Shown piece after piece: positions 1,466 through 44,046 of a stretch of 44,783 bases of DNA. The notes below the pieces were generated by a model that ran no database searches, was not told where the DNA came from, and was given only the letters and a program-made list of their open reading frames with translations. The stretch covers positions 1-44,783 of the IMG/VR virus record IMGVR_UViG_3300024051_000088; one strand, 5' to 3'. The position numbers were made by a program, and so were the translations under genes. Within the stretch, counting starts at the first letter, position 1, and each line of letters begins with the position of its first letter. This DNA comes from a virus (Duplodnaviria; Caudoviricetes).

Positions 1466-1993
1466 TCATGAGCCCGCGACTTTGCTCGACCCCGGCTCGG
1501 CTTTCGAGATCCGCTCCTTGAAACGATCACGCAGGACAGGCAACAGCGCCGCGACAACCGCCTTGTCCCGGATATCCGCCACCATCGCCAGCAGCTCGTT
1601 GTAGAGTTCGCCCGCATCAGCCGTCACCGCTCGCGGCGGCGGCGTCCGTTTGCACTCGATGTAAACGGCCTGAACCGTGTCGTGCAGTTGCTGCAGCAGG
1701 GCGATATCGACGTTCGCTCTTGATGCCGGCACCTTCGACGGATCGTCGAACATGTCGCCGAGCCCTGTGACCAGCCAACTGACATTTACACCGAGAACCT
1801 CCCGGTAAGCGGCAAGCACTGATGCGTCGGGCGTGCGCTCCCCTCTTTCATAGTAGGCCAGTGCGCTTTTGCTAATCCCAAGGCGGGCAGCAAACTCGTC
1901 CCGATCCTCAACATTAAAGTGCGCCCGCACATCGCGAATGCGCCGGCCAAGCGGCGTTTTTGGTTCAATCTCTGGTCTCGCCAAGATCACCAT
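1466..1993 (-). CDS. Prophage repressor, XRE/Cro-C1 HTH
   Basis: DEFAARLGISKSALAYYERGERTPDA HTH; divergent from ner at the left end. Confidence 0.85.
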   Translation of the reverse strand: MVILARPEIEPKTPLGRRIRDVRAHFNVEDRDEFAARLGISKSALAYYERGERTPDASVLAAYREVLGVNVSWLVTGLGDMFDDPSKVPASRANVDIALLQQLHDTVQAVYIECKRTPPPRAVTADAGELYNELLAMVADIRDKAVVAALLPVLRDRFKERISKAEPGSSKVAGS

Positions 1994-2035
1994 TAAACTA
2001 CGATTGCTATTTACAAAGCACCAAACGTAGCTTAA
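1993..2035. promoter_or_regulatory. Divergent immunity switch region with imperfect inverted-repeat operator
   Basis: TTAAACTACGATTG (1993-2006) / CAAACGTAGCTTAA (2022-2035), AT-rich, between repressor and ner. Confidence 0.55.
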
Positions 2036-2066
2036 TCCTTTCTGTGTTCGCAGATTTCAACACCCC

Positions 2067-2095
2067 AAAAAAGGAGGCCTGCCAGGGCCTCCCTT
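2067..2095 (-). terminator. Hairpin with A-run; intrinsic terminator on the minus strand
   Basis: AAAAAAGGAGGCC-TGCCAG-GGCCTCCCTT; the minus strand reads stem followed by U6. Confidence 0.5.
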
Positions 2096-2111
2096 CCGGA
2101 AGGATCATTTT

Positions 2112-2432
2112 ATGCACCGTGCCGCAAAGACCGGCAAGCGCGACCGCGCGGAGGAACGCAGACTGAAGGAAGTGGGTCGCATCCGTGACCTGCTTACCCG
2201 CGCGAAGCTGACGCTTGCTCAGATCGACGAGGACTACAAACTACCGCGGGGAACCGCAGGCAATGCGGTCCACGAACCTCACGTCGCAGGCGAGCGCGCC
2301 ATCGCTGCGGCCCTGCTCACACGCCCTCACCTTCTCTGGTTTTCCCGCTATCACGCTGATGGTCAGCGCAAGAGCCCGCAGCCCGCCGAGAACTATCGCT
2401 ACGCACGCCGCTCGACGACAGAGGCCGCGTGA
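2112..2432 (+). CDS. ner: Ner/Nlp-like DNA-binding protein
   Basis: TLAQIDEDYKLPRGTAGNAVHEPHVAGERAIAAALLTRPHLLWFSRY matches the Ner pattern; first early gene. Confidence 0.8.
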   Translation: MHRAAKTGKRDRAEERRLKEVGRIRDLLTRAKLTLAQIDEDYKLPRGTAGNAVHEPHVAGERAIAAALLTRPHLLWFSRYHADGQRKSPQPAENYRYARRSTTEAA

Positions 2433-2716
2433 TGCGTGGCGCCGACAAGAACGCTGCTCTAGCCTATCGCGGTTTTAGCCGCGGAACCTTTGAAGGTCCC
2501 GGCCGTCAGACCCGCTCTGCCGACGCCACACCCGAACAATTGCGGATGATCGCCCTCCCCGATAGGGCGAAAGTTACAGCCAAAATCGACGTCGTTCCCT
2601 TTCTACCTTCGCACTCGGCTTTCTGCCGAAAGGCGGAGTTGATCCTGCTTTGCGGTGTCCCGTTCGCCGCCCTTTCAGCTGTCCTTGTCCTAGCCGCCCA
2701 GGTGGCTTTGCGATGA
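2429..2716 (+). CDS. Hypothetical protein with C-terminal hydrophobic segment
   Basis: Start and stop overlap both neighbours; atypical composition. Confidence 0.5.
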   Translation: MMRGADKNAALAYRGFSRGTFEGPGRQTRSADATPEQLRMIALPDRAKVTAKIDVVPFLPSHSAFCRKAELILLCGVPFAALSAVLVLAAQVALR

Positions 2717-3111
2717 ACCGTTTCCACGCGCAACCAAAGGGAGTTTCTGTAGTGCGTAATCCCTATTCGCAGGACGAGCGGCTGACCGCCATGGTCAGTG
2801 CGGCCTTTCGCGCCAGCCGCTCGCACTTCAACCATCTGCCGATCCGCTACCTCATCGACCCTCCGCGCGAGCTGTTCGATGCCAAGCTCGCCCGGCAGAT
2901 CACCATCCACATTTTGAATGTCGAGTTCGACATTCCACGCCGCCGGCTGACGAAGCTGCTCGGCGTCGGCCGCGCCATGGTCTTGCAGTCCATCCGCACG
3001 GTGGACCAGCGGCGCTTCGAGCCGGTTTTCGAGCGGGCCTACGAGCGCATCGCAGCGCGGGCCAAGGACAATTTTATGACGGCCCTGGCCGAAGACGCGG
3101 AGGCGGCATAA
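2713..3111 (+). CDS. DnaA C-terminal-like HTH protein
   Basis: ATGA overlap at 2713; LARQITIHILNVEFDIPRRRLTKLLGVGRAMVLQSIRTVDQRR resembles DnaA domain IV. Confidence 0.6.
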   Translation: MNRFHAQPKGVSVVRNPYSQDERLTAMVSAAFRASRSHFNHLPIRYLIDPPRELFDAKLARQITIHILNVEFDIPRRRLTKLLGVGRAMVLQSIRTVDQRRFEPVFERAYERIAARAKDNFMTALAEDAEAA

Positions 3112-3113
3112 GC

Positions 3114-3938
3114 ATGGCCGAATACATTCACGCCCGCCTTTCCGACATCTTCGTGGGCGACCGGCTCCGCACGATCAATCCTTTGAAAGTCGAAGCGCGC
3201 GCCGCGTCGATGGCCGAGCACGGCCAAATTACACCGATCTCGATCAGGCGAACCCCAGCGAAAAACAAGGGGGCGACGCCCTTCTCGCTTATCGCCGGGG
3301 AATACCGCCTAGCAGCGGCGACGTTGCTGGGTTGGACCGAAATCGACGCCGTCATCGTCAAGGCAGACAGCACCGATGCCCAGATGATCGAGATCGCAGA
3401 AAACCTTCATCGTGATGAACTGACCGCGCTCGAAAACGCGGTCTTCGTCATGAAGTATCGTGAGCTTTGGGAAGCCAAGCACGGCAAGATCGAACGCGGC
3501 GGCGACCGCCGATCAAAGGGGCAAGATGCCCCTTTGAAACTCGCAAACGGGCGCGAACTGTCCGTAGTGGTTCAGGAGCGTCTAGGCCTCGGCGCAGACA
3601 CATACAAACGCGCCGTCCGTATCGGCAAAAACCTACACCCCACACTCCGCGCCGCCGTCCTTGGTACAGAAGCCGAGACCGACCAGTCGAAGCTCCTGAA
3701 GCTGGCGAAACTGTCCGCCGACGACCAGTTGCGCATTGCTGCCTCGCTGAAGGAAAAGCCAGACCTGAAGCTGGCGCTCTCCTGGTTGAAGCCTGAGAAG
3801 GCACCCGTCGATCCGCAGGCCGCGATCTTCCAGAAAGTCGCGGCGCTGCTGGAAAAGGCCGACGACGCCACGCTGGTGCGGGTGCTCCAGCATATCGGCG
3901 ACAAGCGCGACCACGCCTTCCTGGAGGCGGCGGAATGA
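3114..3938 (+). CDS. ParB N-terminal domain protein
   Basis: GQITPISIR...LIAGEYRLAAATLLGW...IEIAENLHRDELT ParB/Srx motif followed by HTH. Confidence 0.85.
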   Translation: MAEYIHARLSDIFVGDRLRTINPLKVEARAASMAEHGQITPISIRRTPAKNKGATPFSLIAGEYRLAAATLLGWTEIDAVIVKADSTDAQMIEIAENLHRDELTALENAVFVMKYRELWEAKHGKIERGGDRRSKGQDAPLKLANGRELSVVVQERLGLGADTYKRAVRIGKNLHPTLRAAVLGTEAETDQSKLLKLAKLSADDQLRIAASLKEKPDLKLALSWLKPEKAPVDPQAAIFQKVAALLEKADDATLVRVLQHIGDKRDHAFLEAAE

Positions 3939-4393
3939 AGCCCGATCCGGCACAGCCCGATTTCTTCGCCGAGCCGGTCTATCCGACACGCTCGCCCGTC
4001 GAGCGCATCGACCTTGACCGCTTTCGCCGCCTGCTGAAGCGCGAGATGGCCCGCGCCATCCGCGAATGCCCCTACGACCGGCAGACGGTCGCCGCTCGAA
4101 TGGCGACCTATCTCGGCCTCGCCTCGATCTCCAAGGCCTCGCTCGACGCCTACACGGCGGAAAGCAAGGAAGGCCACGATGTCAGCCTCGTTCGTTTCAA
4201 GGCCTTCGTCCGGGCGACCGGCGCGATCTGGCTTTGGGACGTGATCGTCTCCGAAGACGGCCTCCTGCTCCTCCAGGGCGACGAAGCCCGGCTCGCCGAG
4301 ATCGAGCGGCTTCGCCAGGAGCAGCGGGCCGTTGCCCAGCAAATCCGCAAACTGACGGCAACGCCCGTCCGCATCCGCAGAGGGGAACGTTGA
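3935..4393 (+). CDS. Hypothetical phage regulatory (HTH-like) protein
   Basis: Coupled ORF in the usual pre-transposase position. Confidence 0.7.
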   Translation: MKPDPAQPDFFAEPVYPTRSPVERIDLDRFRRLLKREMARAIRECPYDRQTVAARMATYLGLASISKASLDAYTAESKEGHDVSLVRFKAFVRATGAIWLWDVIVSEDGLLLLQGDEARLAEIERLRQEQRAVAQQIRKLTATPVRIRRGER

Positions 4394-4620
4394 TGCCTCA
4401 GAAACCCAGCATCGTCGACAAGATCGTGGCGAAATACGGCATTCCAGAACGCATCTACGTCGACAACGGCAGCGCCTTCACCTCAAAGGCCTTCCTCTCC
4501 GGGTGCGCCGATCTCGGCATACAGGTGCACTTCAGCACTCCCTATTCCCCCAGCGCAAAACCGTTGGAGCGCCATTTCGTCGATCTGACCGAGGTCAATG
4601 TTGACGAGCTTGGCGCATGA
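4393..4620 (+). CDS. 75-aa protein comprising the C-terminal half of a DDE transposase/integrase core
   Basis: YGIPERIYVDNGSAFTS...LGIQVHFSTPYSPSAKPLERHF; TGATG and ATGA overlaps with neighbours; AGGGG SD. Confidence 0.75.
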   Translation: MPQKPSIVDKIVAKYGIPERIYVDNGSAFTSKAFLSGCADLGIQVHFSTPYSPSAKPLERHFVDLTEVNVDELGA

Positions 4621-6587
4621 AACAGTGGTTCACTCTCGCCGAGATCGTCGCCCTCAAGCTGCCGGGCCTGCCGGTCGAGCTACGCGAACTTTATCGCCAT
4701 GCGGAGCGTCACGGCTGGCGGCTGGATGTGCGCAAGGTCCAGAAGCGCGCGGCTTCCGGGGGCGGGCTTGAGTTCCACTATAGCCTCTTCCCCGGCGAAG
4801 CCCGCGCGAAGATTTCCTTCATGGAAACGGCGCCGACGATTGCGCCGACGTCGGTTTCAAAGCTCCTTTGGACCCGCTTTGAAGCCTTGACCGATGCGCA
4901 GCGCGCAGTTGCCCGCAAGCGTCTCGATGCCATCCTGGAATTGGAGAGCCTCCGTGCTGCCGGGATCAGCGCCCGCGAGGCGACGGCCTTCTGCGAAGCG
5001 AAATTCGAGATCGCCCGATCCTCGCTGTACGAGTGGCGGCAGATGGTCGAGGGCAAAGCCCGGCAGGACTGGCTTGCCGCCCTCGCCCCGGACAGCACTG
5101 CCGCCAACGGGGAAGACGCGCAGCTCGTCGAATGCCATCCGGAGGCTTGGGACGTCCTCGCCGCCGACTACCTCCGGCCCGAGGGTACGGGGTTCGCCTC
5201 CTGCTATCGCCGGATGGAAAAAATCGCGAAGCGCAAGGGCTGGACACCGATCCCCTCCGAACGGACCCTCCGTCGTCATATGGACGCCAAGGTGCCACGC
5301 GCCGTCCAAATTCTCGCCCGCAAGGGCAAAGACGAGGCGATGAGGCTCATGCCGGCCCAGGAGCGATCGGTCGCCCACCTCATGGCGATGCAGTATGCGA
5401 ACACCGATGGCCACAAGCTCGACCTGCATGTGCAGCTTCCCGGCCGCGACAAGCCCACCCGCGTGTACCTTATGGGTACGCAGGACATCTACAGCCGCAA
5501 AATCCTGTCATGGGTGCTGACCGAGGCCGAGACATGGGAGGCCGTGCGCACCATCGTCGGCCGCATGGTGGAGGAGCACGGTATTCCCGAGCGCCTTTAC
5601 ATGGACAACGGCCGGGCCTTCGCCTCGAAGAAAATTTCAGGGGGCGCGAAACGGCGCAATCGCTTCAAGATCACGGAAGACGAGGTTGCCGGCCTCCTGA
5701 AGACACTCGGCATCGATGGCCGTTTCGTAAAACCATATTCTGGTCAGTCGAAGCCTATCGAACGCGGCTGGCGCGATCTTGCCGAGGAAATCTCCAAGCA
5801 TCCCGACATGGCCGGCGCGTATACCGGTCGCAGCACTGCGCACAAGCCGGAGAATTACGGTAAGTGGGCCGTGCCGCTCGATCAGCTCGAAAAGCACGTT
5901 GCGGACCGGATTGCCGAGCACAATGCCCGTGTAGGTCGCAAGACCGAGACCGCCAAGGGTCGCAGCTTCGACGACGTCTTCGCGGAGAGCATGGCCGATC
6001 CGGCGAACCTCGTGCGGTTCGCCAGCCCCTTGCAGCGCTCCCTCTGGATGCTCACGGCCGAGACCGTCACCGCCCGCAAGCCTTCCGGTGCCATCCATCT
6101 GTTCGATAACCGCTACTGGTCGCGCGAGCTGAACCAGTGGATCGGGAAGAAGCTGACCGTTCGCTTCGACCCCTCCGACCTGCACGCCGCCGTCAAGGTC
6201 TACGATCCAGCCGGCCGGCTCATCTGCGAGGCCGAGTGCATCGAGAAGAGCGGCTTCGATTGCCAAGCTGCCGCCCGCGAGACCGCACGCGCGAAGAGCG
6301 AATTCGGCAAGACCTTGCGCGCGCAGAAGGACGCCGCCCGTCGCCTCAACGATGTGCAGCTTCAGGAGGTCATGGGACGCGGCGAGCGTGCTGGCGCCAA
6401 GGCTGCGAAGACCCCCCGTCCGAAGGTGACGCGCCTCATCACCCGCCAACAGGCGGTGCCAGCGGCTCCGGCCGACGAGATCGATCAGGATCAATACGCG
6501 GACAATTTCAGCCGGGGCCTTGCGCGCCTGGCGGGCGGCGATGCCGCCATCCTCCCATTCCCGAAAGGGGATCGACCGGCAAGGTAA
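4617..6587 (+). CDS. Mu-like DDE transposase A
   Basis: N-terminal Mu DNA-binding domain; catalytic TDGH...MDNGRAF...KPIER; Mu C-terminal domain VRFDPSDL. Confidence 0.95.
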   Translation: MKQWFTLAEIVALKLPGLPVELRELYRHAERHGWRLDVRKVQKRAASGGGLEFHYSLFPGEARAKISFMETAPTIAPTSVSKLLWTRFEALTDAQRAVARKRLDAILELESLRAAGISAREATAFCEAKFEIARSSLYEWRQMVEGKARQDWLAALAPDSTAANGEDAQLVECHPEAWDVLAADYLRPEGTGFASCYRRMEKIAKRKGWTPIPSERTLRRHMDAKVPRAVQILARKGKDEAMRLMPAQERSVAHLMAMQYANTDGHKLDLHVQLPGRDKPTRVYLMGTQDIYSRKILSWVLTEAETWEAVRTIVGRMVEEHGIPERLYMDNGRAFASKKISGGAKRRNRFKITEDEVAGLLKTLGIDGRFVKPYSGQSKPIERGWRDLAEEISKHPDMAGAYTGRSTAHKPENYGKWAVPLDQLEKHVADRIAEHNARVGRKTETAKGRSFDDVFAESMADPANLVRFASPLQRSLWMLTAETVTARKPSGAIHLFDNRYWSRELNQWIGKKLTVRFDPSDLHAAVKVYDPAGRLICEAECIEKSGFDCQAAARETARAKSEFGKTLRAQKDAARRLNDVQLQEVMGRGERAGAKAAKTPRPKVTRLITRQQAVPAAPADEIDQDQYADNFSRGLARLAGGDAAILPFPKGDRPAR

Positions 6588-6634
6588 TGCGTCCGGTCGC
6601 AGCATAGAGCCGAGAAGTACTGAGTTCGGTTCCC

Positions 6635-6662
6635 AAAAAAAATGCGGGCCAGAAGACCCGCA
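6635..6662 (-). terminator. Antisense-oriented intrinsic terminator between A and B
   Basis: A8 followed by TGCGGGCC-AGAA-GACCCGCA; the minus strand gives stem followed by U8. Confidence 0.6.
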
Positions 6663-6685
6663 CCAATGAACCAAAGGAACCCTAG

Positions 6686-7708
6686 ATGAAAAAGCCCATC
6701 AACACAATTCCAGAGTGGAATTTCCCGACGCCGCTTCAGCCGTTCGTCGATAAGCACGGCGCCGCGGAAGTCGAACGGTGGCGCAAGCTGCTCGCCCGCG
6801 CCATCGACATCGCCCGCGAACACGGCTGGACGAAGGCCGAGGTTGCCCGCCGTACCGGCGTGCCGGAAGGCACCTTCAGCCAGTGGTCGAACGGGAATTA
6901 TCCGGGCGTCCTCGCCAACGTCAACGACAGCGTGAACAACTGGCTTGACGCCCTGGAAGAAAGCGTCGGCATCGCCACCCGGTTGCCGGTATCGCCGAAG
7001 TTCATCCGCACCGCGACGGGGTCGGAGATCTTCAACGTCCTTCTCTACTCGCAGATTTCGGCCGGCTTCACGATGGTCGTGCTGCCCTCCGGCTCGGGCA
7101 AAACAACCGCCTCCCGGCACTTCGTCTCCACCCGGCCGCATTGCTGGATGTGCACGGTCAGCCCGCACACGAAGACCGTCCACGGCGTCCTCGTCGAGCT
7201 TGCCACCGAACTGGACGTGCATGAGCACAATCCCGCCAAGCTGGTCCGGGCGATCGGCAAGAAGCTGCAGCGCATCGGCGAAGGCACGCTGCTCATCATC
7301 GACGAGGCGCAGAACCTTATTCCCGAGGCAATCAACCAGCTCCGGCATTTCGTCGATAACTATCATTGCGGCGTGGCGCTGATCGGCAACGAGGACACGG
7401 GTACGGCCTTCCTGAAGGATCGCGGTTCGATCGCCAGCCGCGCCCAGGTGCTGACCCGCTTCGACCGGCGTCTTAGCACCGAGCGCGATCCAGCAAATGA
7501 TGCGCTCATGCTGATCAACGCCTGGGGAATCGAGCAGGCCGACTGCATCAAGTTCCTCGCCGCGATCGCCACGAAGCCAGGAGCCTTGCGCAATATCGAC
7601 CGAACCGTCCGCGCAGCCGCGATGCAGGCCCTCGGTGCGGGCGAAGAAATTTGCCTGAAGTACCTCGTTGCGGCTTGGCGCGAGCGTGACATGGGGGAAC
7701 TGGCATGA
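6686..7708 (+). CDS. MuB-like AAA ATPase (transposition/target capture)
   Basis: N-terminal HTH; Walker A PSGSGKT; Walker B LLIIDEAQ. Confidence 0.93.
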   Translation: MKKPINTIPEWNFPTPLQPFVDKHGAAEVERWRKLLARAIDIAREHGWTKAEVARRTGVPEGTFSQWSNGNYPGVLANVNDSVNNWLDALEESVGIATRLPVSPKFIRTATGSEIFNVLLYSQISAGFTMVVLPSGSGKTTASRHFVSTRPHCWMCTVSPHTKTVHGVLVELATELDVHEHNPAKLVRAIGKKLQRIGEGTLLIIDEAQNLIPEAINQLRHFVDNYHCGVALIGNEDTGTAFLKDRGSIASRAQVLTRFDRRLSTERDPANDALMLINAWGIEQADCIKFLAAIATKPGALRNIDRTVRAAAMQALGAGEEICLKYLVAAWRERDMGELA

Positions 7709-11276: not shown

Positions 11277-11494
11277 CCCAGCGGATCGACCTCGAATACC
11301 AAGTCGCCGAGCTTTTCCGTCTGAAGTTGGAAGAGTTCGCCGACTGGTGCGCCGAGAACTGGACCGTCACCGAACTCCAAGCCAAAGCCGACAACGTTTT
11401 TGACGCGAAGCCCGCCGGCTATCGCGAGGGTTACAACGCAGCGGTCGAAGGCCTGCGAGGCGCGGTTGACTGCTTTCTAGAGGAAAAGCCATGA
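11273..11494 (+). CDS. Hypothetical protein
   Basis: GTGA coupling. Confidence 0.65.
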   Translation: MTQRIDLEYQVAELFRLKLEEFADWCAENWTVTELQAKADNVFDAKPAGYREGYNAAVEGLRGAVDCFLEEKP

Positions 11495-11946
11495 GCCGCA
11501 TCTATCTCGCATCCAGCTGGCGCAACCCCTACCAGCCCGACGCCGTCGCCATGCTGCGCGCAGCCGGGCACGAGGTCTACGATTTCCGCAACCCGCCGAA
11601 TGGCGTGAAGGGTTTCGCCTGGTCGGAAATCGATCCGGACTGGCTTGGCTGGAAAGCTGAGACCTACCGCGATCTTCTCACCACGCACCCGATCGCATCG
11701 CGCGGCTACCTCAATGACTTCCGGGGTATGGAATGGGCTGATACCTGCGTCCTGCTCTTGCCGTGCGGCCGGTCGGCACACCTTGAGGCGGGATGGTTTG
11801 CCGGACGTGGCAAGCGCCTGATCATCTGGACCCGCGACGACGAAGAGCCCGAGCTGATGGCGCTTATGGCAAACGCGATCTGCGTCAACGGTGAAGAAGT
11901 TCTCCGCGCGCTCGACGGTCAGCCCATCGTCGGAGCCGCAGCATGA
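11491..11946 (+). CDS. Nucleoside 2-deoxyribosyltransferase/nucleotide N-glycosidase-like protein
   Basis: IYLASSW...D...ADTCVLLLPCGRSAHLEAGWFAGRGKRLII matches the NDT fold pattern. Confidence 0.7.
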   Translation: MSRIYLASSWRNPYQPDAVAMLRAAGHEVYDFRNPPNGVKGFAWSEIDPDWLGWKAETYRDLLTTHPIASRGYLNDFRGMEWADTCVLLLPCGRSAHLEAGWFAGRGKRLIIWTRDDEEPELMALMANAICVNGEEVLRALDGQPIVGAAA

Positions 11947-12564: not shown

Positions 12565-13208
12565 CCTCGACGATCGCCGCCATCCACGTCGGCTGCAAAC
12601 AGCTCGGCATCGACGATGATGCGAAGCGGGCCATCTACGCCCGCATTACCGGCAAGGCCAGCCTGACCCTCATGAAGCCTGCGGAGAAAGACGCCGTGCT
12701 TCAGGAGCTGCGCCGGCTCGGTTTTTCCACCATCGCGCGCCGGCCGAACGGCAAGCAGCAGCTCACCGGCAAGTTTGCGAAAAAGCTCCAGGCGCTCTGG
12801 ATCGGCGCGTGGAACCTCGGCCTGGTCAAGGAACGCGACGATGCCGCCCTGGTCGCGTTCGTGAAACGTCAGACCGGTCTCGACCAGGTGCGTTTCCTGC
12901 ACCATGCCGACGATGCCCGTGCCGTTGTCGAGGCGCTGAAGAGCTGGATGCAGCGCGAGGCACGCGTGATGTTCGGAAACCTGAACGGCCAGGACTGGCT
13001 TGTCGCTGATGGCGCGAAGATTGCTTGGGCGCAGTGGCGCATCCTCAACCCCGGCGCGGACCTGATCGTGCGCAAGGGATTCGACGCCGAGGTCTACACG
13101 ATTATCGGCAGCACGCGCGCATACCTGGGCGATGTTAAAGGCAAGGAATGGCAGGCCGTCATGAATGAACTCGGCCGGCGCATCCGCGCCCGGAAGGCGG
13201 GTGCATGA
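12561..13208 (+). CDS. gemA: GemA (Mu gp16/DUF1018) family regulatory protein
   Basis: IHVGCKQLGIDDDAKRAIYARITGKASL...KLQALW...ALVAFVKRQTG...VVEALKSW. Confidence 0.9.
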   Translation: MTSTIAAIHVGCKQLGIDDDAKRAIYARITGKASLTLMKPAEKDAVLQELRRLGFSTIARRPNGKQQLTGKFAKKLQALWIGAWNLGLVKERDDAALVAFVKRQTGLDQVRFLHHADDARAVVEALKSWMQREARVMFGNLNGQDWLVADGAKIAWAQWRILNPGADLIVRKGFDAEVYTIIGSTRAYLGDVKGKEWQAVMNELGRRIRARKAGA

Positions 13209-13948
13209 TGCGCTCCAGCAACGTGATGAACTCCCGCCACCATCCGAGCGATTCCCTGGACTATTTCCCGACCCCGCCCTGGGCGACCCGCGCCGTTCTG
13301 CATGAGGTGCTGATCCCGCGCCAGAACTTCTGGTACCAGCTCCGCGACCTGATCGCACTCGACCCCTGCTACGGCGGTGGCCATATGGTCGCGCCGCTTC
13401 AGGAGGTCTTTGACCTCGTCGAGTTTTCCGACGTGCATGATTGGGGCTTTTCCCCGCCGATCCGCGACTTCACGTTCGAAACCGTCGCGACACTCGAAGC
13501 GGACGGGCGCAACCGGCCGGACTGGATCTTCTGCAATCCGCCCTTCAAGATCGCCCAGGTCTTCCTCGAGCGTGCCTTGTCGATCGCCCGCATGGGCTGC
13601 GCGTTCTTCGTCCGTGTCGGCTGGCTTTCCGGGCAGGAGCGCTACGACCTCATCTATCGCGACAATCCGCCGACCTTCGTCGTGCACTTCGCCGAGCGGG
13701 TATCGCTGATCGAAAAGGCTTGGGATCCGGAGGTCAAAGGCGCGACCGACTATGTGTGGCTCATCTGGATCGACGGCATGCGCCCGCAGCCGCCGATCTG
13801 GCTCCGGCCGGACATGGAAGAAAAGTACACCCGCGCCTCGGACATGGTGCTGGCCACGCCCGGCGAGGCCAAGCGCCGCCTGGATGCGAAGAAGAAGCGG
13901 GAGAAGGAAGAGGCCGAACGCCGCGCGGCAGAACAGGCGGGCGTGTGA
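13205..13948 (+). CDS. SAM-dependent DNA amino-methyltransferase
   Basis: DYFPTPPWAT, motif I LDPCYGGGHM, catalytic motif IV NPPF. Confidence 0.85.
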   Translation: MMRSSNVMNSRHHPSDSLDYFPTPPWATRAVLHEVLIPRQNFWYQLRDLIALDPCYGGGHMVAPLQEVFDLVEFSDVHDWGFSPPIRDFTFETVATLEADGRNRPDWIFCNPPFKIAQVFLERALSIARMGCAFFVRVGWLSGQERYDLIYRDNPPTFVVHFAERVSLIEKAWDPEVKGATDYVWLIWIDGMRPQPPIWLRPDMEEKYTRASDMVLATPGEAKRRLDAKKKREKEEAERRAAEQAGV

Positions 13949-39847: not shown

Positions 39848-40657
39848 ATGGTAAATCTGAAACCGGTTTCCCCGGTCTCGCCTGCCGCTCCCTATATCGG
39901 CGGCAAGAGGGTGCTCTCCAAGACCATCATCCAGAGAATTAATGCCATACCGCATGACGGTTACGCTGAGCCATTCGTCGGGATGGGCGGCATTTTTCTA
40001 CGCCGAACGATGCAGCCGCGCATGGAGGCCATCAACGATATCAGCGGTGATGTTGCGAACCTCTTCCGCATTCTCCAGCGCCACTATCCGCAGTTCATGG
40101 AGACGCTTCGATTCCAGATCACCAGCCGGCGCGAATACGAGCGTCTGGTCAGGGTCGATCCCACGACGCTGACGGACTTGGAACGCGCGGCGCGCTTTCT
40201 TTATCTCCAGCGCCTCGCGTTCGGTGGCAAGGTCTCCGGCCGCAACTTCGGCGTAGACAAGACGAGCGGCGCCCGGTTCAACCTCCTGAAGCTCGCCCCG
40301 CTCCTGGAAGACATTCACGAGCGCCTTTCCGGCGTCATCATTGAATGCCTTCCATGGCGAAGCTTTATCGAGCGCTACGACCGGCCGGGCATGCTGTTCT
40401 ATCTGGACCCGCCATATTGGGGAAACGAGACCGACTATGGAGCCGGCGCCTTCAGCCGCGACCAGTTCGCGGAAATGGCGGACGTTTTGAAGACCCTTCG
40501 AGGGACCTTCATCGTGTCCTTGAACTCGGTTCCAGGCGTCTTCGAAACGTTCCGGGATTTCTCGGTAGAGGAGGTGGATTGTGTCTATTCCATCGGAGGG
40601 AATGGACATAGCAAGAAGGTCCGCGAGGTGCTTATATCTGGTCACGGCTTAGATTGA
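39848..40657 (+). CDS. DNA adenine methyltransferase, D12/Dam class
   Basis: PYIGGK, YAEPFVGMGG, INDI, FYLDPPY; occupies the Mu mom position. Confidence 0.93.
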   Translation: MVNLKPVSPVSPAAPYIGGKRVLSKTIIQRINAIPHDGYAEPFVGMGGIFLRRTMQPRMEAINDISGDVANLFRILQRHYPQFMETLRFQITSRREYERLVRVDPTTLTDLERAARFLYLQRLAFGGKVSGRNFGVDKTSGARFNLLKLAPLLEDIHERLSGVIIECLPWRSFIERYDRPGMLFYLDPPYWGNETDYGAGAFSRDQFAEMADVLKTLRGTFIVSLNSVPGVFETFRDFSVEEVDCVYSIGGNGHSKKVREVLISGHGLD

Positions 40658-41272: not shown

Positions 41273-41349
41273 TGGTAGCGGAGGAGGGATTCGAACCCCC
41301 GACACAAGGATTATGATTCCTCTGCTCTAACCTACTGAGCTACTCCGCC
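41273..41349 (-). tRNA. tRNA-Met (CAT), probably elongator
   Basis: GGCGGAGTAGCTCAG...GAGGAATCATAATCCTT...GGTTCGAATCC...CCA, 77 nt. Confidence 0.95.
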
Positions 41350-42862: not shown

Positions 42863-43612
42863 TCAGATGAGCCGGAGGCGCAGCGCGACGGCGATCGCCT
42901 GCATGCGGTTGACGGCCTGCAGCTTGCGCGTGGCGCTCTTGAAGTAGCTGCTCACCGTATAGACCGAGATGCCGAGGATGATTGCGATCTCGTCGCTGCT
43001 CTTGCCGGCCGCCGCCCAGCGCAGGCATTCGACCTCGCGGGTGGAGAGCTTTTCCCGGCTCGCCGTCGCCGCGGCGAAGGTCTTTTCGAGACATTCGAAA
43101 AGCTGGAGCGCGGAGAAATGGAGCTCCGTCAGCTCCGGGCGGGCGAGCGGCAGGCGCTTGCCGGAAAACACCATGAGATAGGGATCGGAGGTGGTGGAGT
43201 GCAGGAGGAAGGCCGTGGAGGCGGCAAGCCCGTGCATCTCGGCAAGCGCGATCGCCTCGCCCGACTGGCCGCTTTCCCAGTCGGCGGGCGAAAAGAGCGC
43301 GCTGTCGCCCTGCACCGGCAGCTTGGTCATGCCGGTCTCCACCGCCAGCCGGCTGATGTGGAAGAGGTTCATCGCGTCATACTTGCGCACCAGCTCGGCC
43401 GGCCAGTTGCTGACCATCAGGCGCTCGGCGAACCGCTGCTGCTCGTTCGCCGGATAGCGCGCCACCAGGAAATGGCTGAAGCGGAAATGGTTGGCGCACT
43501 GGCGCATGAGGTGCAGCACCTCGTATTCGGTCTGCACGGTTTCGAGATTGGCCGAGGACAGGATTTCCGGCGACCAACCCTGCTGCAGGAGCATGTTGTC
43601 TGGATCTCTCAT
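42863..43612 (-). CDS. LuxR-family regulator with autoinducer-binding-like domain (solo)
   Basis: SNWPAEL...Y; [28 protein letters not shown]. Confidence 0.9.
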
Positions 43613-44046
43613 TTTCCGTTTTCCAGCAGCCGGCGCGAACGCCGGGCTCGTGTGCATTCTCGGTCCGGAAAGTTCTTGGGAGCACCCGTCCCACGGGTGA
43701 TGTCGGAAACGCCGCGAGAGCCGTATCCCGAAGGCAAACGGCTTGCGGCGCTCCGCCGGCCTCGATCGCGTGGATTGCGGCCCGGCAAATTCCCAATGCT
43801 ACGGCGCTCCTCGCACGTCTTCGCGCGCGGCGCCCTAGTCTTCATGTGGATGCTTCCTGGAGGTTTCCGGTAGCATCGACCCGATGCCGCCTCCAAATTT
43901 TGGCGCGTATTAGCAGTATTTGAATAAAATGGAAATGAAATATTTGCAGGCCTGTCCTGCGTTCGGGCGGTAGCCGCAAACAGCCCTACGTAACGGAAAG
44001 CAGGGGCTTGCGCCCTGCGACAGTACAGGCGAAGCCGCTCAAAAGA

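Follow-up and report, generated by a model that had tools for sequence, protein, structure and literature searches.

A probably transposase-derived mini gene coupled to transposase A in a Mu-like prophage: an apparently undescribed small gene family that may regulate transposition

The stretch of DNA analysed here (44,783 nucleotides; the window) contains a Mu-like (transposable) prophage with repressor, ner, A and B genes. Terminase, portal, head, sheath, tape measure and baseplate genes are also present, and 17 of the 20 proteins scanned matched a PHROG. A repressor (c)-like HTH gene (1466..1993, minus strand; Pfam HTH_3 and Phage_CI_repr) is divergent from the early operon, whose genes all lie on the plus strand. 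The operon opens with a Ner-like gene (2112..2432; Pfam HTH_35, phrog_769) and continues with two small genes, a ParB-like gene, a phrog_2345 gene (3935..4393; E = 2e-44) and the 75-codon gene under study (4393..4620; hereafter mini), followed by a MuA-like transposase A of 656 residues with the acidic triad D264/D330/E382 (4617..6587; Pfam DDE_2 and Mu domains; E = 2.5e-83 against the MuA structure 4fcy) and by B, a MuB-like AAA+ ATPase (6686..7708; Pfam Phage-MuB_C and AAA_22). No promoter-like site was found in 1900-6800. The matches of the A type in Sinorhizobium and Ochrobactrum phages suggest that the host is an alphaproteobacterium. A host-type tRNA-Met gene (41273-41349) lies just past the last phage-like genes, and beyond it a LuxR-type regulator with an autoinducer-binding domain (42863-43657), a stretch that is probably host flank. 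The prophage also carries a nucleoside deoxyribosyltransferase-like gene and two DNA methyltransferase genes (11491-11946, 13205-13948 and 39848-40657), one of the latter near its right end, where Mu has mom.

The mini gene (P0001), annotated from its sequence, BLASTP against A, Pfam, homologues and dN/dS, was brought forward by an earlier note on this DNA, and the open reading frame at 4393..4620 and the protein quoted there were confirmed from the sequence. A Shine-Dalgarno motif, GAGGGG (4380..4385, plus strand; anti-SD pairing -6.3 kcal/mol), lies 7 nt upstream of the mini ATG, and the gene overlaps both of its neighbours as had been described, phrog_2345 through TGATG (4391-4395) and A through ATGA (4617-4620). 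The mini frame is open upstream to an ATG at 4066, which would give 184 residues; this extension was rejected, since it contains two to three stops in all three relatives checked and the homologues all start at the Met equivalent to 4393.

BLASTP aligned mini residues 6-67 with A residues 312-390 (31/79 identities, 39%; E = 1e-15) across a 17-residue gap, in agreement with the claim that mini is homologous to a segment of the resident transposase and lacks a loop found there. The A-like body comprises codons 6-67 (4408..4593) and its counterpart in A, loop included, 5550..5786 (both plus strand); at the DNA level the body is 74% identical to resident A over 82 nt. Since A aligns with MuA (4fcy), its D264, D330 and E382 can be equated with D269, D336 and E392, the residue numbers reported for the MuA catalytic site (PMC3362531). 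As the earlier note had observed, mini retains the second Asp (D24, 4462..4464, equivalent to A D330; in 16/16 aligned members) and the Glu (E59, 4567..4569, equivalent to A E382; in 15/16, P0015 losing it at an insertion) and is devoid of the first Asp, the alignment beginning at A 312, past D264. It is likewise devoid of all other transposase domains, the 75 residues giving Pfam matches to rve and, weakly, DDE_3 only. The rve match (39.6 bits versus a cut-off of 32.6) spans positions 54-102 of the 102 in the profile, and the NCBIfam scores for IS481 (40.7 versus 224) and IS3 (20.4 versus 160) are far below the cut-offs. The protein ends in an acidic tail, DLTEVNVDEL (4582..4617, plus strand), whose part past DLTE is without counterpart in A and is found in 15/16 members. 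A likeness of this tail to the C-terminal E-I-D-x-D motif of A was considered and dropped, as it looks like a generic helix cap.

The position that mini occupies is a swappable slot. A scan with phrog_2345 yielded 32 loci, from which we counted the 25 at ≥55% identity, several of them near-copies, and set aside seven distant ones, where mini is absent too. The phrog_2345 gene sets a fixed limit to the slot on its upstream side, being present there in 25/25 close loci (which were found with this gene). The slot is empty in 17 of them, phrog_2345 overlapping A directly, while six hold an unrelated helical gene of 73-81 residues with coupled overlaps, two hold other small ORFs, and none holds mini. 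In the closest relative, whose A is 88% identical, the helical gene occupies the slot with 75 codons and the same TGATG and ATGA overlaps. The earlier note had taken the tight coupling of mini as an argument against debris; this argument falls, because an unrelated occupant is coupled alike and 17/25 loci have phrog_2345 overlapping A with no occupant, so that coupling is a property of the slot and says nothing about function. Nor does the phage machinery have need of mini, given that the closest relative carries an unrelated gene and 17/25 slots are empty.

The helical slot gene (L151:2989-3216, L152:4453-4680, L155:4459-4704, L159:2195-2422, L171:4037-4258 and L174:2985-3206) is conserved and helical by sequence pattern, has no Pfam match and gave a weak match to phrog_19667 in two of three examples examined. 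It resembles unnamed, largely viral Atlas clusters and may be an A-coupled accessory. The other two occupants, a 53-residue hydrophobic ORF (L160:4450-4611) and a 59-residue basic ORF (L169:3452-3631), are unrelated and without PHROG match. In another relative (L175:2818-3225) a frame change interrupts A near residue 134.

Homologues of mini form a family. A single-sequence search returned eight clusters (P0001 included) among nine candidates, a profile search 15 clusters of 72-82 residues among 55 candidates, and cluster look-ups three further members; 16 of the 18 members were aligned, P0017 and P0018 being left out. The aligned proteins are 63-80% identical to P0001, share 18 invariant columns and have both ends in common (16/16), with no frameshift or stop. 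Three members (P0005, P0011 and P0015) come from contigs of 37-41 kb, as would be expected for phages of this kind. D24, N25, G26, P50 and K56 are kept in 15/15 rows and Y51 and E59 in 14/15, so that the best-kept positions are the active-site and target-facing residues of A, although over all columns conservation in mini did not significantly track that in A (Spearman 0.22, p 0.10). G-Q-S-x-P, nearly fixed in A, is eroded in the minis to a more basic loop, and the least conserved part is the edge-helix region (47-87% at positions 36-40). In P0015 and P0018 a six-residue arginine-rich insertion removes the Glu position and the remainder of the protein is kept, while P0016 is without the acidic tail and ends in EKAAKA.

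The distribution of the family is narrow. When 1.84 billion representatives were searched exhaustively with the profile, a single strong match emerged (P0014, 148 bits; the next scored 78 bits), so the family corresponds to a single cluster at 50% identity; it is small and probably of one origin. No mini locus was found in IMG/VR. GTDB genome contigs gave 47 loci, all full-length transposase-type matches (best segments 57%), and none of the at least 80 metagenome loci listed, from 13 of 64 parts, carried mini. The 23 phage and 332 plasmid records recovered were all under 60%, and the family profile found nothing above 55 bits among the ORFs of 192 fetched loci. Whole-genome searches detected phrog_2345 in 9/201 genomes and the LuxR gene of the flank in 1/201; five further genome searches (1, 1, 130, 3 and 3 genomes) added nothing new. 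We found no description of such a gene in a literature search covering mostly open-access papers, and mini thus apparently represents an undescribed small gene family.

Outside the window, one homologue is seen in full context. A 2,892-nt contig of run X6, whose length and changes agree with P0009, covers phrog_2345, mini and the start of A in the same arrangement, ATGA overlap included, and a 206-nt contig of run X4 bridges the mini/A junction with three differences. Mini therefore sits just before A in both full contexts seen (the window and this homologue), and the expectation of homologues at the same position was borne out by one independent full contig and not by the close loci counted above (0/25). 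A second X6 contig joins window position 4395 to 4615 (depth 4.3, short side 34 nt); a relative with other or no slot content may thus share the X6 sample with the mini-bearing phage.

Comparison of the window and X6 minis (34 of 36 changes placed by hand, the change at codon 74 being taken from the P0009 protein) gave 16 nonsynonymous and 18 synonymous changes on 169 and 53 sites, that is, a dN/dS of ~0.22 for this one syntenic pair (0.19-0.26 depending on the two unplaced changes; Fisher p ~1e-4). Mini is under purifying selection in the pair compared. For scale, dN/dS between the window and L145 is 0.14 for phrog_2345 and 0.10 for A, and that of the helical slot gene (L145 versus L148) is 0.31. 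Together with the fixed ends of 15 clusters, this value upholds the view that mini is a conserved, selected small gene. It is very improbable that mini is neutral debris, a transposase fragment in decay, and this reading is largely refuted. In its favour are the small size of the family, confined to one cluster at 50% identity and absent from the 192 fetched loci, and a dN/dS based on one pair; against it, 16/16 members diverged to 63-80% identity keep fixed ends and an intact frame, and no close full-length form turned up among 8,000 scored longer candidates (best 35-54%; weak evidence in itself). The marks of a pseudogene, a unique sequence or ragged ends and a dN/dS near 1, are thus not what we observed.

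The ribosome site of A suggests another possible role for mini. It pairs at -2.2 kcal/mol, compared to -4.9 to -7.9 in 5/5 relatives, and is the weakest of the six compared; it also falls within a predicted stem. Mini might then act mainly through translational coupling, as a spacer whose open frame brings ribosomes to the weak and structured start of A and which has little function as a protein. Coupling to A persists whether the slot is filled or empty, and in IS91 a TGATG coupling is reported to raise tnpA expression (PMC13181058). However, a spacer requires an open frame only, and neither the excess of synonymous change (dN/dS ~0.22, p ~1e-4) nor 18 invariant columns in 16 sequences is expected from it, which makes the spacer an improbable full account of the gene. 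Since the A site is the weakest of six, translation of mini nevertheless likely also feeds A.

Where mini came from can be read in part from its spacing and sequence. The distance from Asp to Glu is 52 residues in looped phage A proteins, 36 in IS-type enzymes and 35 in the minis, and the number of residues between P-Y and E-R is seven in phage A, eight in the IS type and seven in the minis. Over 57 columns, mean identity of the minis was highest to looped A proteins (0.50; resident A, L146 and P0038), compared to 0.36-0.43 for loopless phage enzymes and at most 0.43 for the IS-type rows shown. In two FastTree runs on the 57 columns (P0015 left out, 30 of 106 IS rows sampled) the minis joined the alphaproteobacterial A clade with support of 93 and 83, apart from the IS enzymes and not adjoining resident A. 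A recent duplication is therefore unlikely, as the earlier note had maintained, the mini family being nested beside resident A in neither tree. The missing loop, by contrast, does not serve as a pointer to a foreign donor, because, among full-length proteins, the minis are most closely related to looped A proteins of the Mu type, the resident clade included.

The start of the protein has a different likeness. Over residues 2-11, the family agrees in register with the start of the helical slot gene (in the window, the first 11 codons, MAGKISIIGQI, 4393..4425, plus strand), with a score above that of 3,041/3,041 background N-termini, in a comparison that was made post hoc, for a start shared by three slot genes, two others with shifted starts scoring at background. 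The C-terminal EKAAKA of P0016, the member placed nearest to A in the second tree, resembles the EKKAGAA of the helical gene. Homology of mini and the helical gene over their whole length was rejected (hhalign probability 5.8%, only residues 1-22 aligned). In-frame DNA matches of 11 of 12 nt between the helical gene and A flank the A-like segment, pairing slot nt 17 with A codon 312 at one edge and slot nt 200 with A codon 390 of L153 at the other; on their own they were discarded as evidence, being common by chance (1-9 such matches in each of 12 gene pairs). From these comparisons it is likely that the helical gene had its body exchanged for a piece of a Mu-type A core (~312-390) and kept its start; in the mini ancestor the loop would have been lost, and the acidic tail gained, at a later stage.

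The AlphaFold model of mini, of modest confidence (mean pLDDT 67), renders residues 62-64, in the Glu helix region, as a strand; such a third strand would permit an independent fold and hints at a re-folded protein. Fold searches returned integrase-core or weak generic matches only (Foldseek against the PDB, best E = 3e-3; BFVD, best E = 9e-4; VIA-align, best Z 4.9), and an Atlas look-up gave an rve-type cluster at 0.93 plus unnamed clusters. Co-folding of mini with A residues 80-560 scored 0.00, which speaks neither for nor against pairing. These models bear on the idea that mini is a repurposed transposase fragment, a small independent alpha/beta fold with a new acidic tail, whose partner would be a host protein and whose role, like that of other early accessory genes, would lie outside transposition. 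Such a role would suit the modelled strand, the tail that is absent from A and kept in 15/16 members, the loss of Glu with retention of the remainder in P0015 and P0018, and the unrelated small genes that fill the same slot in relatives. Yet the face corresponding to the transposase active site is still the best-kept part, P0016 does without the tail and the model is of modest confidence, and we regard this explanation as unlikely, though not remote.

Our tentative proposal, possible rather than probable, is that mini is a dead mimic of A that tunes A/B transposition early in lytic growth. A DDE site requires three acids on one fold, and the mini product is therefore predicted to be catalytically dead. 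Through its overlaps mini would be synthesised immediately ahead of A from the early lytic operon. It would then take the place of the second half-core of A by docking on the enzyme or, alternatively, occupy the site on B or target DNA that this half-core contacts, and so lower or pace transposition; its translation likely also helps to start A. I7, I11, L58, F62 and L65, presumably the hydrophobics that pack against strands of the DDE fold missing from mini, are kept in the minis, which makes pairing with the first half-core of A possible. From the position in the early operon, and from the biology of Mu, mini is expected to act with A and B in infection and induction, the lysogen being excluded. 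The poisoning of competing elements envisaged in the earlier note is, on the same grounds, unlikely to take place in a lysogen, since the early operon would be silenced by the repressor.

The IS21 transposase IstA (D124, D187, E233) provides a structural guide: its N188 and Y224 are reported to contact target DNA, and its edge helix (205-214) the ATPase IstB (PMC11208146). Judged by spacing from the catalytic Asp and Glu and not by alignment, mini N25 and Y51 may correspond to N188 and Y224, and mini 32-41 to helix 205-214. As the edge helix is the most variable part of the mini family, mimicry of the ATPase site is disfavoured. Mini also has no counterpart of MuA domain III-alpha, reported to drive assembly (PMC5357137), or of the IstA beta-barrel, reported in the ATPase contact (PMC11208146), which counts against a mimic of A. 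The eroded G-Q-S-x-P residues, the column conservation that does not track A significantly, the unrelated gene in the slot of the closest relative and the modelled strand count against it as well; in its favour are the selected family, the independent syntenic contig, the well-kept active-site and target-facing residues, the weak ribosome site of A and the OrfB and Orf121 precedents described below.

A related and somewhat more doubtful idea is that mini is a new regulatory microprotein, created when half of the phage's own transposase catalytic domain was pasted into a neighbour gene, and acting as a separately encoded split-domain regulator or decoy of a DDE recombinase. Mini, made just ahead from the same message, would pair with the first half-core of nascent A or, alternatively, replace A in contacts with B or with a host sensor. 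Taken by itself, a decoy role towards a host factor, either a defence sensor or a protease adaptor, that would recognise the catalytic core of A in early infection appears improbable. Surface motifs of A are kept in mini, and its patchy presence in a swappable early slot (0/25 close loci) would be typical of conflict genes. On the other hand, the minis are only ~50% identical to any A over 57 columns and have no A loop, and we found no transposase-sensing system among the papers that a literature search listed or in the part consulted of a survey of Avs sensors (10.64898/2026.01.04.697583). No PADLOC model matched any of the 16 mini members, in a library of defence proteins that is without anti-defence proteins.

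Several known products resemble mini in part. Tn5 Inh is a shortened transposase that inhibits by binding the full enzyme; it arises from a start codon inside the transposase gene and retains the catalytic and dimer domains in full. Against the MuA-type core (PF02914 DDE_2, PF00665 rve; 4fcy, 1bcm), mini 6-67 is homologous to the second half, helix-strand-helix-strand-loop-helix, which carries D336 and E392, and its P-Y-7-E-R spacing is of the phage A type, unlike the 8-residue IS type. In contrast to MuA, mini lacks the first Asp, the first three strands, the DNA-binding regions, beta-barrel, domain III and 17-residue loop, and is a separate gene with a new start and an acidic tail. OrfB of the IS3 family, a DDE domain without DNA-binding domain, is reported to lower transposition, with a modest effect in the assay (PMC5771124). 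Like mini it is a DDE-type product encoded beside the transposase, but OrfB comprises the entire DDE domain, has the same sequence as part of the transposase and comes from the same reading frames, whereas mini is a half domain from a separate gene, 39% identical to A. Orf121 of IS91 is, like mini, encoded directly upstream of a transposase with a stop/start overlap, being TGATG-coupled to tnpA, and is reported to inhibit transposition (PMC13181058). It serves an HUH transposase, however, is a conserved feature of IS91 and is not described as transposase-derived in the portion of that source consulted (PMC13181058), whereas mini is transposase-derived and optional (0/25 close loci). Our best guess is that mini would work like IS3 OrfB, IS91 Orf121 or Tn5 Inh. 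It is a member of none of these groups, being half a domain, a separate gene and optional.

If mini regulates A, it would be a compact modulator, encoded by a gene of its own, of a transpososome of the MuA type, the class to which Tn7/CAST TnsB belongs and to which retroviral integrases are related, and would provide a direct test of half a DDE domain acting in trans. Annotation pipelines would label such a gene a transposase fragment and drop it. In either case, the locus would make gene birth readable in a phage, with one gene's start joined to half of the next gene's core and a new tail.
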